Part shown: one piece after another, positions 2,736-9,601 of the stretch
Position numbering within the stretch: position 1 is the first letter of the stretch
Layout of the letters: each line of letters starts with the position of its first letter
Source of the DNA: Spirochaetota bacterium
GTDB lineage: Bacteria > Spirochaetota > UBA12135 > COTS27 > CBDBHE01
Length of the DNA stretch: 64,000 nt
Assembly (NCBI GenBank): GCA_965205605.1
Contig: CBDBHE010000006.1
Coordinates: forward strand, 160,001-224,000
Reading direction: 5' to 3'
Notes under the pieces: model-generated
Database searches by the model: none
Told to the model about the DNA's origin: nothing
The model's input: the letters and a program-made list of their open reading frames with translations, nothing else
Program-made: the position numbers and the translations under genes

Positions 2736-3152
2736 ATGAAGTTTTTTTATTTTTCTGTTTTTTCTTTAAGTCAGTGTTTTTTGATATTTTCTTGCTTTGG
2801 AGGTGACCGCAAACAAAAAAAAACATTAACCCCTAAAGAACAGCTTATTTCCGAAGGACAGAAGATGTATCATATAAGAGGTTGTGTTAAATGTCATGGC
2901 TTTAAAGGAGATGGAAAAGGGCCTCTTATGATGACGTATCGGGGGACGTATCGGGCACGTGATTTTTCTAATTTAAAAGCGTATCGACAAGGGAGTAATT
3001 TAAAACAAATGATGCAGACCATTAAAGTAGGCATTACCAATGTCAAAACAACGATGCCAGCATTTCCTTACTTATCTGAGAAAGAAAAACTCTCTATAGC
3101 AACTTATATTATTTATCTTAGAGAGCTTTCTTTAAAATCAACTAATTTTTAA
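2736..3152 (+). CDS. Monoheme c-type cytochrome, probable lipoprotein
   Basis: CVKCH heme motif, GFKGDGKGP, distal Met in TTMPAF; LIFSC lipobox-like. Confidence 0.9.
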   Translation: MKFFYFSVFSLSQCFLIFSCFGGDRKQKKTLTPKEQLISEGQKMYHIRGCVKCHGFKGDGKGPLMMTYRGTYRARDFSNLKAYRQGSNLKQMMQTIKVGITNVKTTMPAFPYLSEKEKLSIATYIIYLRELSLKSTNF

Positions 3153-4079: not shown

Positions 4080-4652
4080 ATGGTTGGAACAAATTATTTA
4101 AAAAAAGGAATTACCATTAAGAAGGTAAATAAATTGTGGTTTGTTATTAGTAGTTTTTTTGTCAAACCTGGAAAAGGAGCCGCTTTTTATAAAGCGAAGC
4201 TTAGGGAAATAAAAACAGGAAAAGTGGTTGAATACACTTTTAAATCAGGTGAGGAAATTGATTTAGTTGATACGGAAAGAAGAAATGTACAGTTTTTGTA
4301 TCAAGGTAGGCAAGAGTATGTTTTTATGGATGAGGAAAATTATGAACAATATCATTTAAAGATAGATATTGTAGGAGAAGAAGTTGCTCGGTTTTTAAAA
4401 GAAGAACAAAAGCTTGTTTTATTTTTTGTTGAAGAAGAGCCGATTAGTATAAGTTTTGTGAAGCAAAAATTATCTTTTAAAGTTGTAGAAGCTCCTCCGG
4501 GAGTAAAAGGAGATACAGTTAGTAATGCCTTTAAAACAGTGACGATTGATTCAGGAGCTAAGATACAAACGCCTCTTTTTATTAAAGAGGGCGAAGAGAT
4601 TATTGTTAATGTTGAAACGGGCGAATATTGCGAAAGAACGAAGGGTAATTAA
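4080..4652 (+). CDS. efp: Elongation factor P
   Basis: VKPGKGAAF, PGVKGDT, TPLFIKEGE; GAGGT RBS upstream. Confidence 0.97.
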   Translation: MVGTNYLKKGITIKKVNKLWFVISSFFVKPGKGAAFYKAKLREIKTGKVVEYTFKSGEEIDLVDTERRNVQFLYQGRQEYVFMDEENYEQYHLKIDIVGEEVARFLKEEQKLVLFFVEEEPISISFVKQKLSFKVVEAPPGVKGDTVSNAFKTVTIDSGAKIQTPLFIKEGEEIIVNVETGEYCERTKGN

Positions 4653-4664
4653 AAGCAAATTGTA

Positions 4665-5555
4665 TTAAGTTTTATAAAGATAAGCGACTTGTTTTTCATA
4701 GCCATTGTAAGGCAGGGTTTTTTGGATTTTGTTGCTACCGATTAGTCTTTCCCATTTTTGGGACCACCTAGGGTGAGGTACTTTGGGGTTAACATTAGAG
4801 AAAAAGCCGTATTCTTTTGGAGCGACATCGTTCCAAAAAGTGGCTGGTTTTTTATTGGTGAATTCGATTGAAACAATACTTTTAATACTTTTATAGCCAT
4901 ATTTCCAAGGAGTAATGATTCTTACAGGGGCTCCATTTTGTTTTGGAAGTGCTTTCCCATACATTCCAATCGTCAATAAAGTAAGAGGATTTAAGGCTTC
5001 ATCTAGTCGCAGTCCTTCATAATAAGGCCAAGGATAATAGGGGGCTGTTTTAATACCAGGCATTTGTTTGGGTTTGTAAGCGGTTACAAATCGAACATAT
5101 TTTGCTTTTTTAAGAGGCTTGGCGTCTTTTATAATATCTCTAAAAGCGATTCCCATCCAAGGTACAACCATTGCCCATTTCTCAACACATCGAAATCGAT
5201 AGATCCTTTCCTCAACATTAAAACGCTTGGTATATGAATACAAATCTACTTTTTTTTGATTTTCACAAAGACCTTTAATTTCTATTTCCCAAGGATTGAT
5301 TTCAAATCGACGTGTGTTTTTTATTACTTTTTCTTTATCAAGACCAAACTCATAAAAGTTATTATAACTAGTTGCTATTTTTTCGTTTGTTATTTGTAAG
5401 TTAGTTTTTTTTTTGGCTTTAATAAAGGAAGCAAGACTAAAAGTAGTTGCTAAAAGAGCTGTTTTTTTTATGAAGCTTCTTCGATGATTAAAAATAGATT
5501 CATCAGTAACGTCATTTTCAGTTAAAGCCCATTCTTTTTTTTGATGATAATGCAT
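4665..5555 (-). CDS. msrP: Protein-methionine-sulfoxide reductase catalytic subunit MsrP (YedY)
   Basis: Tat motif RRSFIK; YNNFYEFG, RFRCVEKW (Mo-ligand Cys), WPYYEGLRLDEA, QNGAPVR, PWKYGYKSIKSI, HPRWSQ. Confidence 0.95.
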   Translation of the reverse strand: MHYHQKKEWALTENDVTDESIFNHRRSFIKKTALLATTFSLASFIKAKKKTNLQITNEKIATSYNNFYEFGLDKEKVIKNTRRFEINPWEIEIKGLCENQKKVDLYSYTKRFNVEERIYRFRCVEKWAMVVPWMGIAFRDIIKDAKPLKKAKYVRFVTAYKPKQMPGIKTAPYYPWPYYEGLRLDEALNPLTLLTIGMYGKALPKQNGAPVRIITPWKYGYKSIKSIVSIEFTNKKPATFWNDVAPKEYGFFSNVNPKVPHPRWSQKWERLIGSNKIQKTLPYNGYEKQVAYLYKT

Positions 5556-5592
5556 TTTTATAGGATTTGCTTCTTAAAGAGAAAACGAATCA

Positions 5593-6951
5593 TTATTCTG
5601 GAAAAATTTGATTACCTGCCTTTAGGTCAGAAACAACCGATATATCTTTTAAGGTTCTTTTTTGAGAAGGCCCATTTTCTAAATTAAGCACCCCTCTAGG
5701 GCAAACAGTAGAACACAACCCGCAACCTACGCAAGAAGATCTTACGATATTTTGTCCTCTTTGAGCGTACCATTTAACATCGATACCCATTTCACAATAA
5801 GTAGAACAATTGCCACAAGAAATACAAAGAGAACCATTAGTGGTGATTCGAAATCTTGAAAAAAACCGTTGTAAAACACCTAAAATAGCAGCTTGAGGGC
5901 ATCCAAATCGGCACCAAAGCCGTGTCCCAAAAATTGGATAAAATCCTGTCCCAACAACACCTGCAAAGACCATCCCAATCAAAGTCCCATAAACCATTCG
6001 AAATTCTTTTGATAAAGGACCAAAAATGGAGTTGGGTTTCATTAGATCAATCCATAAGAAAACGGTTGTCGTAATAATAAAAAGAAGCACGCTATAAATA
6101 CTAATTCTTTCTATTTTCCAAGAAATAAGCTTCTTAGAAGATAATTGTCTCCAAGGATCCCCAAGAGTATTGGCAAGGCCTCCACAACCACAAACCCAAG
6201 AACAATACCATCTTTTACCATAAAAATAAGTTAAAATAGGAACGGCAACAAAAGATAACGCAATCGACCAAGCGAGTAAAAAAATGCTTAATTTACCTGG
6301 ATGATTTAGCATATAATCAATATTACTTGGAAAAATGTCTTGATAACTTAAAGGCCAAAAATAATTTACGTATTTTTGAGGTTCTTTTAAAAAAACTAAA
6401 ATAGCTGGGATTAAATAAGCAAAAATAGATTGAAAAAAGATAACTGATAAGGTTCTAATAATTTGATAAGCACTGTGTCGATATTTTACGATTGCCCTAA
6501 TTCCCATCATGAAAATTAAAAAAGTATACAGAGAGCCATATAAGAAATATTGATCAGACCCCCTCCCTCTTAAAGAGTAAGAGAAAGCATCTGTCATTTT
6601 AATCAGATGTTTTAAAGTAAAAGGGAACCAATACATTAAAATATAAAACCCGGTTAAAAAAAGACACAGCATCCAAGCAAAGGCACCTCGGTGAGTTAAA
6701 AAAGATGTGGTAATGTTATCATTTTTAACCCCCGCAGGAGTTTTTAAGTAATGTTTTAAAATATAAATAAGAGCCCCTACACTTATAAAACTAAGGCTTA
6801 AACCAAAAAAAAGTTTTGGTTGATGACTGCCTCCACCAAAAGCACCAATAAAAAATAAAAAAACCCCAATAGAAAAAATAAAAAGACCACTTTTTTCTAT
6901 AAAGCCTAAAGAATAATCTTTAATAAGACTAGTTGAATCATTTGTATTCAT
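5593..6951 (-). CDS. Polytopic membrane 4Fe-4S protein (NapH/MauN/YccM-like)
   Basis: About 9 TM helices; GKRWYCSWVCGCG, RLWCRFGCP, CISCGNCSTYC, CVGCGLCSTVCP. Confidence 0.9.
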   Translation of the reverse strand: MNTNDSTSLIKDYSLGFIEKSGLFIFSIGVFLFFIGAFGGGSHQPKLFFGLSLSFISVGALIYILKHYLKTPAGVKNDNITTSFLTHRGAFAWMLCLFLTGFYILMYWFPFTLKHLIKMTDAFSYSLRGRGSDQYFLYGSLYTFLIFMMGIRAIVKYRHSAYQIIRTLSVIFFQSIFAYLIPAILVFLKEPQKYVNYFWPLSYQDIFPSNIDYMLNHPGKLSIFLLAWSIALSFVAVPILTYFYGKRWYCSWVCGCGGLANTLGDPWRQLSSKKLISWKIERISIYSVLLFIITTTVFLWIDLMKPNSIFGPLSKEFRMVYGTLIGMVFAGVVGTGFYPIFGTRLWCRFGCPQAAILGVLQRFFSRFRITTNGSLCISCGNCSTYCEMGIDVKWYAQRGQNIVRSSCVGCGLCSTVCPRGVLNLENGPSQKRTLKDISVVSDLKAGNQIFPE

Positions 6952-6980
6952 TTTTAATTAAAACTCCTTGTATTGTGTTA

Positions 6981-8348
6981 TTAATTTCTACTTTGAAAGA
7001 TAGGGAATAATCCTTTTTTTGATTTTAATTTGATTGGATTTTCTTTGTGCAGGTTATTGTAAACATTAAGAACGTTTTTTTCAAAACTTTTATAAAATTC
7101 TGGATCAAAATTAACTTGCCCTAAATGAGCTAGAACATGAGAGAGCTTTTGTTTTTCGTGAATCCATTTTTCACATATTTGGTGTCTCCCTCGAATCCCT
7201 AAAAAATTAAAACCGATAACAGTTTGATTTGACTTTAAGTAGTTGATACGAATGCATCGTTGTCCATTAGGATCTTCCCAATAAATACTGGCTTCATTTT
7301 TTGGGTTTTTGTTTAAAATCATCCCATAAGTTTGATATTCAATATTAAAAAATTTAGCTGAATTAAACCAAATACCAGGAGAATAAAGGGTTTTTTCAAG
7401 AGTAATACTTCTGGCGACACATTCCCCTTGCATTTTTCCAGTATACCACAAAGGTTCACTTGGTTTTCGATTAGGGCTTGGCTTTTTTAAAGCAGAACAG
7501 TCCCCAATCGCATACACATCCTCCATGTTTGTTTGCATATAATCATTAACAAGAATTCCTTTTTTATCAATTTCAAGATCACTATCTTTTAAAAAATCAA
7601 CATTAGCTCTCACTCCTATAGTAATTCCTAAAAAATCACAAGGGATTTCTTCACCTTTAGTGGTAATAATAGCTCTGACTTGTCCTTGTTGATTAGATAA
7701 GATTTCTTTTAATTCTGTTTCAGTTTTAAGGTGAACATGGTGTCTTTTGATTTCTCGGGTAATAAGCTTTGCTTCTTCTTCAGGTAGGGTAGAGCTAAAA
7801 TACAAATGGCTGCGAATAAGAAAAGTGACTTTGATACCTCTAGACAAAAGCATTTCTGCCATTTCTACTCCAATAAGCCCTCCTCCAACAATGACTGCTT
7901 TTTTAATATTTTTAGTATTTTTTTCCATCTGCTCAAGCGATTGATAACTATAAAGTCCTTGGATGCCTTTTGATTCTTTTCCAGGCCAATTTAAAAAAAT
8001 AGGGATTGACCCTGTCGCTAAAATTAAAATATCATAATTCATTTCTTTTTCTTTAGATTTTTTTAAATGAAGTGTTTTATTTGAAAAATTGATTTTTTCT
8101 ACGTAAGCTTTAAGTAAGTTAATTTTATTTTTTTTCCAAAACCAATCTTCATAAGGTTTTGTTTGTTCATAAGTCAAATGCCCCATATAAATGTACATTA
8201 GAGCGGTTCTTGAGAAAAAGTGATCGGTTTCGTTTGAGATAATCGTAATGGTGTGCTTAGAATATTTTCTAATATATCGGGCAGCGGTAATGCCTGAAAT
8301 CCCATTTCCTATAATAACAATGTTTTTTTTAGTATTCACTTTGATCAT
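6981..8348 (-). CDS. NAD(P)/FAD-dependent oxidoreductase (pyridine nucleotide-disulfide / rubredoxin-reductase-like)
   Basis: IIGNGISG FAD motif, ILATGS, VGGGLIGVEMAE NAD motif, VYAIGDC. Confidence 0.9.
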   Translation of the reverse strand: MIKVNTKKNIVIIGNGISGITAARYIRKYSKHTITIISNETDHFFSRTALMYIYMGHLTYEQTKPYEDWFWKKNKINLLKAYVEKINFSNKTLHLKKSKEKEMNYDILILATGSIPIFLNWPGKESKGIQGLYSYQSLEQMEKNTKNIKKAVIVGGGLIGVEMAEMLLSRGIKVTFLIRSHLYFSSTLPEEEAKLITREIKRHHVHLKTETELKEILSNQQGQVRAIITTKGEEIPCDFLGITIGVRANVDFLKDSDLEIDKKGILVNDYMQTNMEDVYAIGDCSALKKPSPNRKPSEPLWYTGKMQGECVARSITLEKTLYSPGIWFNSAKFFNIEYQTYGMILNKNPKNEASIYWEDPNGQRCIRINYLKSNQTVIGFNFLGIRGRHQICEKWIHEKQKLSHVLAHLGQVNFDPEFYKSFEKNVLNVYNNLHKENPIKLKSKKGLFPIFQSRN

Positions 8349-8483
8349 AACCCTTCAATATTAATAATGCTTTAAATTATAATCTAAAATTTGACTTTTT
8401 TTTCAAAAAGTAAAGTGAAATAAAAATAATCCCAAAAATTACAAATAACTAATAAAGAAGTCTTTTTAAATTTTAAAAAATAG

Positions 8484-8536: not shown

Positions 8537-9601
8537 ATGAAATCTAAAAAAAAAATTAAAAAATGGGGAAATTGGGAAAAAATTTCTTCTTTTAAAAAAA
8601 ATAAAAAAGATTCAAAACAAAAAGAGGAAAAAAACAATCAAGGAAAAATCGTTAAAAACTATGATGTGACTAAACTTGATAAGATTAATCTTAAAGCTAT
8701 TAAAGAAAAATATTCCCAAGTTTACTCAAAACAAGTCTCTAAAATCAATGAAATCAAAGCCCCAAAAATATGTTATTTTTGTGGTGTGAGTATTCAAAAA
8801 GAAAGTTTTTTTGTTTTTATTCCTCAAGAAAAAGAAATTTGTCGTGCTTGTTTGCAAACAAAAAATCAATGTAAAAATTGTGGTGTTTTAATTGCGTCTT
8901 TGCAAGTAAAAGGAATGGACCAAAAATATTGTGTTTATTGTAAGCCTCAAACAAAATGTTCGGCTTCTAATAAGAGCTTATTAATTAGCGAAGGAAGTCG
9001 ATTAGAAGGAACTTGTGGTTTTTTTTCTAAAGAAGCCCTTTCGAGAGGAAAAAAATGTTTTTTTTGTCAATTTCCTGCTTTTGAGATATTTTCAAAAGAT
9101 TCCAAAAATCCTTTTCTTTGTTTAAAATGTTCGTCAACTCTTTTAAAAAATGAATCAGATTTTCATTCAGTGCATTTAGACATTACTTCTTTTCTTAGAA
9201 GATATCAGCCGAGACGACTGAGGGCTACTTTTAAGATGCGATTTGTTCTTTTTAAAGCAGATTCTTTAAATTTTTTCAAAAAAGAAAATCGTTTATTTTG
9301 GGTGATAACACCGATGCCCAAACTATTTTTTATCGAATCTTTTTTAATGCATTATTTAAAAGATATTATTTGTCCTTATTATTTGTCTTTAAGAGAACGT
9401 GATCAAAAATTATTTTTTCAATTTGTGTGTTTTATTTTTTATCAATTTAAAGGATATTTACTTGAAAGTCTTAGGGTGAAAAAACAAGCTTTTAGAGGAA
9501 ATGGTTTTGGAGATGCTTTTAGAAATTATTACTTAATGTTAGAAGAAAGTGGCATTAAGAAAACATTAGATGTTCTTTTAAATGATTTGAAAGTAAGTTG
9601 A
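8537..9601 (+). CDS. Cys-rich zinc-finger protein, LIM/DA1-like with degenerate peptidase domain
   Basis: CYFC, CRAC, CKNC, CVYC, CFFC, CLKC pairs; C-terminal MPKLFFIESFLMHYL and FGDAFR resemble DA1 LPRLL..HEMMHAW and YGDGFR. Confidence 0.55.
   Translation: MKSKKKIKKWGNWEKISSFKKNKKDSKQKEEKNNQGKIVKNYDVTKLDKINLKAIKEKYSQVYSKQVSKINEIKAPKICYFCGVSIQKESFFVFIPQEKEICRACLQTKNQCKNCGVLIASLQVKGMDQKYCVYCKPQTKCSASNKSLLISEGSRLEGTCGFFSKEALSRGKKCFFCQFPAFEIFSKDSKNPFLCLKCSSTLLKNESDFHSVHLDITSFLRRYQPRRLRATFKMRFVLFKADSLNFFKKENRLFWVITPMPKLFFIESFLMHYLKDIICPYYLSLRERDQKLFFQFVCFIFYQFKGYLLESLRVKKQAFRGNGFGDAFRNYYLMLEESGIKKTLDVLLNDLKVS

Follow-up and report, generated by a model that had tools for sequence, protein, structure and literature searches.

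The periplasmic methionine-sulfoxide reductase MsrP is taken to depend on MsrQ, and the cytosolic flavin reductase Fre is said to have been proposed by Juillan-Binard in 2017 as an electron source for MsrPQ. Reducing power from cytoplasmic NADPH is also exported by DsbD/CcdA to periplasmic repair and redox proteins. The closest described counterpart of the locus reported here is the MsrPQ (YedYZ) system of Escherichia coli, for which we follow sections of two papers (PMC5449189, PMC12525009). A second point of comparison is NapH, which serves a periplasmic redox partner, has four helices, and carries its ferredoxin domain and cysteine motifs on the cytoplasmic side, according to passages of one of these papers (PMC5449189). 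NapH-like proteins have been proposed, in the portions of Meheust et al. (2021, PMC8238504) considered here, as trans-membrane electron-transfer units that combine in modular fashion with various periplasmic reductases. Here, we studied a 64,000-nucleotide (nt) stretch of DNA from a Spirochaetota bacterium (the window: contig CBDBHE010000006.1 of assembly GCA_965205605.1, positions 160,001 to 224,000 of the forward strand), in which msrP lies behind genes for an NAD(P)H/FAD flavoprotein and a NapH-like iron-sulfur membrane protein, with no msrQ beside it. We propose that MsrP works here independently of MsrQ, with iron-sulfur and flavin centers as the candidate source of its electrons, and we regard the chances that the flavoprotein and membrane protein (together, the module) supply electrons to MsrP in this organism as evenly balanced.

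The three genes lie on the minus strand in the order flavoprotein (gene 1, 8348..6981, 455 amino acids [aa], from the open reading frame [ORF] call and Pfam), membrane protein (gene 2, 6951..5593, 452 aa, on the same basis), and msrP (gene 3, 5555..4665, 296 aa, from the ORF call and NCBIfam). The first spacer, of 29 nt (6952..6980, minus strand), holds an AGGAG-like stretch that resembles a ribosome-binding site ahead of gene 2, and no terminator-like site was called inside the second, of 37 nt (5556..5592, minus strand). These ORF coordinates bear out the co-orientation and gap lengths given in a preliminary description of the locus, and the three genes probably form one predicted operon. 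A promoter-like site upstream of gene 1 (TTGAAA-16-GATTAT, 8379..8406, minus strand) is a consensus match only, with no evidence of function. Since promoter-like and terminator-like sites are no more numerous than in shuffled sequence (12 promoter-like sites against a shuffled mean of 19.9), these scans are uninformative on co-transcription. On the other side of msrP, efp (4080..4652, plus strand; TIGR00038, 192.6 bits, cut-off 185.8) is convergent, with the two stop codons 12 nt apart. There is thus no space for a downstream msrQ and the unit ends there, so the preliminary description was also right that no msrQ adjoins msrP.

By model score, gene 3 is a bona fide MsrP (NF003767 MsrP equivalog, 405.7 bits, cut-off 207; Oxidored_molyb PF00174, E 4.3e-29), and methionine-sulfoxide reductase activity is predicted for its product. 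The protein has a twin-arginine motif (RRSFIKK, residues 25-31) in which R25 and R26 are nearly invariant among 30 sequences, and its C123, which we take to be the Mo ligand, is invariant among them. Because the same genome encodes TatC (170 bits) and MoaC (108 bits), the protein is plausibly made and exported, as expected from the earlier reading of gene 3 as a Tat-exported MsrP. This is the single msrP in the genome. The genome-wide profile search for MsrQ suggested at the time gave no match to PF01794 (Ferric_reduct) or NF003831 at E<=1 in the genome (1.69 Mb, 8 contigs), which is 91.19% complete, so that the absence of MsrQ is unproven. An ordinary msrQ in the unassembled ~9% would be compatible with this completeness and with an assembly in 8 contigs, and we nevertheless hold it to be very improbable: of 67 metagenome loci long enough for a verdict, 60 have msrQ next to msrP, a position taken here by convergent efp after 12 nt; closed or near-closed genomes with MsrP of the same clade (e.g., G418, G424, and G427) are likewise without PF01794; and no PF01794 match over cut-off was found in 89 of the 95 MsrP genomes of another phylum, that of genome G415.

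To place the window's MsrP among its relatives, 592 of which were confirmed in a metagenome scan, the best 80 (41-55% identity) were kept. MsrQ adjoins msrP in 60 of these 80 loci, 13 loci end too early to judge, and 7 have no MsrQ despite at least 700 nt past msrP (L092, L098, L102, L126, L140, L153, and L163). An MsrQ label that ORF clustering had given to L092 and L153 was rejected, as the ORFs concerned are shadow ORFs without PF01794. A maximum likelihood tree of 131 sequences (quick IQ-TREE search) separates MsrP into two groups, each with a Shimodaira-Hasegawa-like approximate likelihood ratio (SH-aLRT) support of 94. The MsrQ-linked clade comprises 88 rows, with MsrQ adjacent in 76, none in two (L102 and L083, the latter from genome G013), and no call in 10. 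The other clade, which we call MsrQ-less, comprises 43 rows, with MsrQ adjacent in none, absent in 39 (including L092 and L153), and no call in four; to it belong, on this tree, the window's MsrP, that of L098, and every MsrP from a module-carrying genome. A large MsrP clade that is generally without MsrQ raises the question of what its electron source for periplasmic methionine repair is, and our literature searches found no paper in which MsrP works in the absence of MsrQ or receives electrons from an iron-sulfur protein. A figure legend in PMC6987092 places yedZ and yedY in Rhodothermus marinus, a placement not compared with the counts given here.

Natural fusions of MsrP offer another view of its partners. 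Among 50 longer MsrP homologues, 18 are joined to MsrQ. A single natural protein of 919 aa (P0024) unites MsrP and MsrQ with a 2Fe-2S ferredoxin domain and with FAD/NAD domains of the FNR type, which shows that a chain from NAD(P)H to MsrP does exist in another setting. Natural MsrP fusions are also found among P0017, P0019, P0025, P0028, P0035, P0040, and P0041, and in some, whose sources are apparently green algae by name, MsrP is combined with cytochrome b561 and/or DOMON domains.

The candidate donor in the window is the gene 2 product, in which Pfam finds Fer4_5 at residues 227-267 and a C-terminal 4Fe-4S dicluster domain at residues 371-422, and hydropathy suggests about eight hydrophobic segments. 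It had been described as carrying two CxxxCP-like motifs and a 2x[4Fe-4S] ferredoxin domain. The ferredoxin domain and the second motif (CRFGCP, with C347/C351 and P352) hold, and the first motif is instead CSWVCGC (C250/C254/C256), with no proline after it. All 13 motif cysteines (C250, C254, C256, C347, C351, and those of both CxxCxxCxxxC motifs) are invariant in 33 homologues, and so are many aromatic residues, including YFWPL in loop 189-222, which is predicted to face outward. Both NapH/MauN models were missed by a wide distance (TIGR02163, 56.5 bits against a cut-off of 213; NF007013, 48.6 bits against 234). No FMN_bind match was found in the membrane protein or in the seven window proteins scanned, and ApbE was not searched genome-wide. 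An AF2 model of the protein (pLDDT 67.2, pTM 0.68) has no Foldseek match in the PDB at E<=0.001, and a PDB sequence search matched the ferredoxin domain as the only part; with no solved relative of the membrane fold found, topology and cofactor positions cannot be fixed by structure. A complex prediction for the membrane protein with mature MsrP (residues 48-296) gave scores of 0.00 and 0.01 where the mark is 0.32, and counts neither way.

Gene 1 encodes, as had been read from its sequence, an FAD/NAD(P)H oxidoreductase (Pyr_redox_2, E 1.6e-55) of the two-dinucleotide-binding-domain superfamily, which is cytoplasmic and has no signal peptide. Its top NCBIfam matches (CoA-disulfide reductase, NirB N-terminus, NorW, PadH, and HcaD) are all far under cut-off, with 173.7 bits for CoA-disulfide reductase (TIGR03385) where the cut-off is 578.8. 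Across 73 aligned family members, no conserved cysteine column precedes position 237, and the sole invariant cysteine is C284, within a conserved D283-C284 pair. A role as a CoA-disulfide or thiol reductase was ruled out, since these 73 members share no conserved redox cysteine, and for the same reason the flavoprotein appears to be of the electron-transfer type, a ferredoxin-reductase kind of enzyme.

The two upstream genes belong together well beyond this genome. When the membrane protein was scanned against one genome per species, at least 554 relatives were confirmed; the best 80 (48-61% identity) were kept, and a flavoprotein gene lies directly upstream of the membrane-protein gene in 78 of these 80 loci. 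The relatives, from metagenome-assembled genomes (MAGs) and isolates, carry the labels Bacteroidota, Rhodothermales, Gemmatimonadota, KSB1, Latescibacterota, Calditrichia, Ignavibacteria, Planctomycetota, and Verrucomicrobiota, among others. In a fused form of the module, proteins of 750-850 aa combine an N-terminal Pyr_redox_3/2 domain with a homologous membrane iron-sulfur part. Between the split and fused forms, the membrane parts share 31% identity across 433 aa (E 2e-49) and retain every cysteine motif; the flavoprotein parts are distant (24% identity, E 0.003). The adjacency in 78 of 80 loci, together with the fusion, indicates that the flavoprotein and the membrane protein act together. 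A longer membrane-protein variant of 528-561 aa occurs in eight genomes of the phylum of genome G418 (G541, G565, G613, G725, G729, G741, G757, and G769); it matches in two pieces, with an N-terminal identity of ~40% and a C-terminal identity of 58-70%, a pattern that points to an insertion or to a subfamily of its own.

Does the abutting of this module and msrP in the window carry meaning? On a metagenome contig (L098), a 754-aa fused gene ends 108 nt ahead of a Tat-MsrP gene on the same strand, with no MsrQ after msrP. In genome G913 (L230:3203-9576, G913:C54), msrP, an 855-nt gap, a 785-aa fused gene, and genes for an OmpR-type response regulator and a histidine kinase follow each other on one strand; the gap holds no convincing ORF and two similar short stretches (a repeat). 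We presume a likeness between this arrangement and msrPQ beside the HprSR two-component system in E. coli. Adjacency of msrP and module is thus seen in three unrelated lineages and in two architectures, split in the window and fused in L098 and G913. The arrangement could still be an accident of a small compact genome, or the result of hitch-hiking on one transferred fragment, with no functional meaning. None of the 80 closest module loci shows the linkage, which fits such an accident, as do the uninformative promoter and terminator scans and the want of usable synteny with same-order relatives by which to date the arrangement: four closed genomes of the same order have only efp in common with the 13 window genes that surround the locus, and thus cannot show whether the three genes were acquired in one piece. 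Against it stand the recurrence of the linkage in L098 and G913, where the homologue is fused and just 31% identical, the fact that both parts are rare in the window's phylum yet abut here with a 37-nt gap, and a co-occurrence that holds in two further phyla, and we judge an accident improbable.

That co-occurrence was counted in several sets of genomes. Of the best 80 module-bearing genomes, 50 were examined for MsrP, which was found in 17; PF01794 exceeds the cut-off in only two of these 17 (in frames of ~400 aa on other contigs) and is sub-threshold in one more, and msrP lies near neither module nor MsrQ in the 17 loci. In the phylum of G418, 401 genomes were sampled and 33 have MsrP, in two kinds. 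All 16 genomes with a high-scoring MsrP (including the fragmentary G739) have MsrQ adjacent and none has the module; of the 17 genomes with a lower-scoring MsrP, none has MsrQ adjacent and 15 have the module (14 split and one fused). The module occurs in 73 of the 368 MsrP-negative genomes. Fisher tests gave p = 8e-9 and p = 1.5e-7, values that are overstated because relatives are not independent, and PF01794 was found elsewhere in three of the 17 lower-scoring genomes, in frames of 353-387 aa. The phylum of G415 (168 genomes) has MsrP of the MsrQ-less kind in 95 genomes, with no MsrQ beside any msrP, and the module, mostly in its fused form, in 117. The module is present in 86 of the 95 genomes with MsrP and in 31 of the 73 without (p = 1.7e-11, again among non-independent relatives). 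PF01794 is found in 14 of the 168, never near msrP, in frames of 363-475 aa save for one sub-threshold match in a 208-aa frame. For both phyla the kind of MsrP was assigned by score and model end-point, with confirmation from the tree only for two sets of 33 and 15 loci.

The window's own phylum is sparser. Six of 401 genomes have MsrP over cut-off, and six of 41 carry the module. None of eight other genomes of the window's order has MsrP or a close split pair, and one of them (G004) carries the fused form. Elsewhere in the phylum, G015 has MsrP and MsrQ with the module absent, and in G013 MsrP is followed by hisS, with a sub-threshold PF01794 match only and a fused module on another contig.

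Several observations weigh against our proposal that the module feeds MsrP. Linkage is rare: no MsrP homologue lies within 5 kb in any of the 80 closest module loci, one of the 80 metagenome msrP loci shows it, as does one of the 95 genomes with MsrP in G415's phylum, and in 17 and 16 further MsrQ-less loci msrP is not near the module. The neighborhood survey of msrP without msrQ that the preliminary description had called for thus gave a divided answer, with the linkage recurring beside fused modules in L098 and G913 and missing from these 33 loci. Two genomes (G842 and G846) have an MsrQ-less MsrP and no module even by profile search, and in G846 msrP is on a 2.98-Mb contig. Conversely, the module is common without MsrP, in the 73 of 368 and 31 of 73 MsrP-negative genomes given above, and must therefore have another role. 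The co-occurrence counts are phylogenetically non-independent and confounded by shared ancestry, co-transcription in the window is argued from spacing and orientation, and no Fer4/NapH-like fusion occurs among the 50 longer MsrP homologues, which is weak evidence. The window's MsrP, which likely belongs to the MsrQ-less clade, sits on a long branch (0.89) with an odd composition, and the clade support of 94 is under the 95 mark. Finally, there is no demonstrated crossing route through the membrane protein: its predicted outer loops hold no conserved cysteine or histidine in our reading of the alignment of 33 homologues, and we know of no membrane-spanning cofactor in this family.

These observations leave room for a reading in which the module has a job of its own and is tied to MsrP by no more than shared regulation or inheritance. 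That job might be NAD(P)H:quinone oxidoreduction, or the reduction of another exported client such as the DUF547 protein with its CxxxxCP motif; MsrQ-less MsrP would then draw on quinol, or on a cytochrome c in the periplasm, via another route. The frequency of the module in MsrP-negative genomes speaks for it, as do its recurrent neighbors (DUF547, glycosyltransferases, and NAD kinase rather than msrP), the solitary msrP of the 33 MsrQ-less loci, and the absence of the module from G842 and G846. NapH, moreover, is part of a quinol dehydrogenase in the passages of the two papers that treat it (PMC5449189, PMC8238504), and the window itself holds a cytochrome c gene 1.5 kb off (2736-3152). Three independent adjacencies in two architectures are nonetheless unlikely without a functional tie; in one phylum the module is strongly enriched in genomes with MsrQ-less MsrP and fully excluded from those with MsrPQ (0 of 16); and no alternative conserved co-oriented neighbor of MsrQ-less msrP was found in the 17 loci from module-bearing genomes. 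We see this reading as quite possible, while leaning against it.

The neighborhoods of the module show what else it may serve. Among the 80 module loci, DUF547 is found in 24, each of two clusters of GT2 glycosyltransferases in 24, GT87 in 14, and NAD kinase in 12, where it lies upstream of the pair (e.g., L004:1364-2311) and hints at NADPH rather than NADH as the substrate. The DUF547 proteins have an N-terminal signal peptide and a conserved CxxxxCP motif (L002:2066-2821; L173:109-933; L229:1210-2049), and an exported protein of this kind as a recurrent neighbor points to periplasmic clients, of which the DUF547 protein may be one. A DUF547 gene overlaps the end of the fused gene in G004, and the window's genome has one DUF547 gene (L229:1210-2049 = G000:C6), ~10 kb before the window start and ~14 kb from the operon. 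Our literature search on DUF547 showed no study of a bacterial DUF547 among the matches listed. The fused gene of G013 (L172:3817-6821, G013:C81) adjoins soxY, soxZ, and soxA-like genes. Ahead of it is a gene for a 284-aa protein without a family, which has two membrane helices and a C-terminal CxxC...CxxC ribbon, and a 35%-identical homologue of this protein precedes the fused gene in G028 (L174:11150-12013, G028:C9).

Thus, the module is not MsrP-specific but a unit of a general kind, found also without MsrP and beside other exported proteins, and MsrP is at most one client among several. The earlier recognition of the upstream pair as a Bacteroidota-like pair found mostly in other contexts was sound (78 of 80 loci with the adjacency, none with msrP near). 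The further step, that linkage to msrP would assign the pair its function, is not justified by these counts, with msrP near none of the 80 loci and the module common where MsrP is missing. The suggestion of an alternative trans-membrane reductant supply for MsrP fares better, since MsrQ was not found, the linkage recurs, and co-occurrence is well above background; it is held back by the rarity of the linkage and by the crossing step.

If the module does supply MsrP, electrons might travel as follows. The cytoplasmic flavoprotein would oxidize NAD(P)H and pass electrons to the two ferredoxin-type [4Fe-4S] clusters of the membrane protein, and a further cysteine-bound center at the inner membrane face would probably be reduced too. 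Solely from motifs we infer the cofactors of the module, with hydropathy added for a topology that would put the ferredoxin domain and both cysteine motifs on the cytoplasmic side, and the direction of flow from NAD(P)H via FAD to the clusters has the same standing. The membrane protein would then reduce Tat-exported MsrP at the outer face, directly or via a quinone bound in the membrane protein. With no conserved cysteine or histidine in the outer loops, the route across the membrane would be such a bound quinone or a chain of conserved aromatic residues, and both this step and the contact with MsrP are wholly inferred.

Two neighbors of the operon in the window also deserve mention. A small exported cytochrome c (2736-3152, plus strand; Cytochrom_C, 2.6e-07) is encoded 1.5 kb past msrP and is a conceivable alternative periplasmic electron carrier. 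On the other side (8537-9601, plus strand), a gene that runs away from the operon, with 188 nt of AT-rich spacer between the two, encodes a 354-aa lysine-rich protein with many CxxC pairs, for which no Pfam or NCBIfam family match was found.

In a broader and more tentative proposal, which we consider rather unlikely, the split or fused flavoprotein and eight-helix NapH-like polyferredoxin would constitute a previously unrecognized heme-free conduit from NAD(P)H across the inner membrane to several periplasmic clients, including the MsrQ-less MsrP clade and DUF547. Two whole-phylum surveys and MAGs of many labels contain the module, and, if the proposal is true, it would join MsrQ/NOX-type hemes and DsbD-type thiol relays as a third solution. 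Short of this, the survey offers one concrete, testable candidate electron donor for MsrQ-less MsrP, and a first clue to the function of a very widespread pair of genes (at least 554 relatives) and of DUF547.

How does the proposed system compare with those already described? With MsrPQ of E. coli, the window shares the catalytic subunit, as judged by NF003767, the Tat signal, and the presumed Mo-ligand cysteine, and it may share the logic of a membrane protein that feeds periplasmic MsrP, there possibly from cytosolic NAD(P)H. The two differ in the membrane partner, which is heme-b MsrQ in E. coli and here, where PF01794 was not found, a candidate iron-sulfur protein of unrelated fold; in the flavoenzyme, of the Fre/FNR flavin reductase class there and of the Pyr_redox_2 class here; and in MsrP itself, which falls in a separate clade. 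NapH, of the NapGH quinol dehydrogenase of periplasmic nitrate reductase, shares Fer4_5, CxxxCP, and the C-terminal double [4Fe-4S] domain with the membrane protein, which is nonetheless not a NapH/MauN member by score. NapH also has four helices where about eight are predicted here, has CxxxCP as its first motif where the window protein has CxxxCGC, and works with periplasmic NapG where the partner here is a cytoplasmic NAD(P)H flavoprotein (NapG was not searched for elsewhere in the genome). NosR, PceC, and their relatives, described as flavinylated NapH-like proteins in the portions of PMC8238504 considered here, are polytopic NapH-like iron-sulfur proteins as well. Those portions, which do not extend to the supplementary table, make no mention of an association with MsrP. 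These proteins have an extracytosolic FMN-binding domain, whereas none was detected here and electrons would enter from a cytoplasmic flavoprotein. The likeness to DsbD/CcdA is a functional analogy only: there is no sequence relationship, and a thiol-disulfide relay there would be matched here by iron-sulfur and flavin centers.

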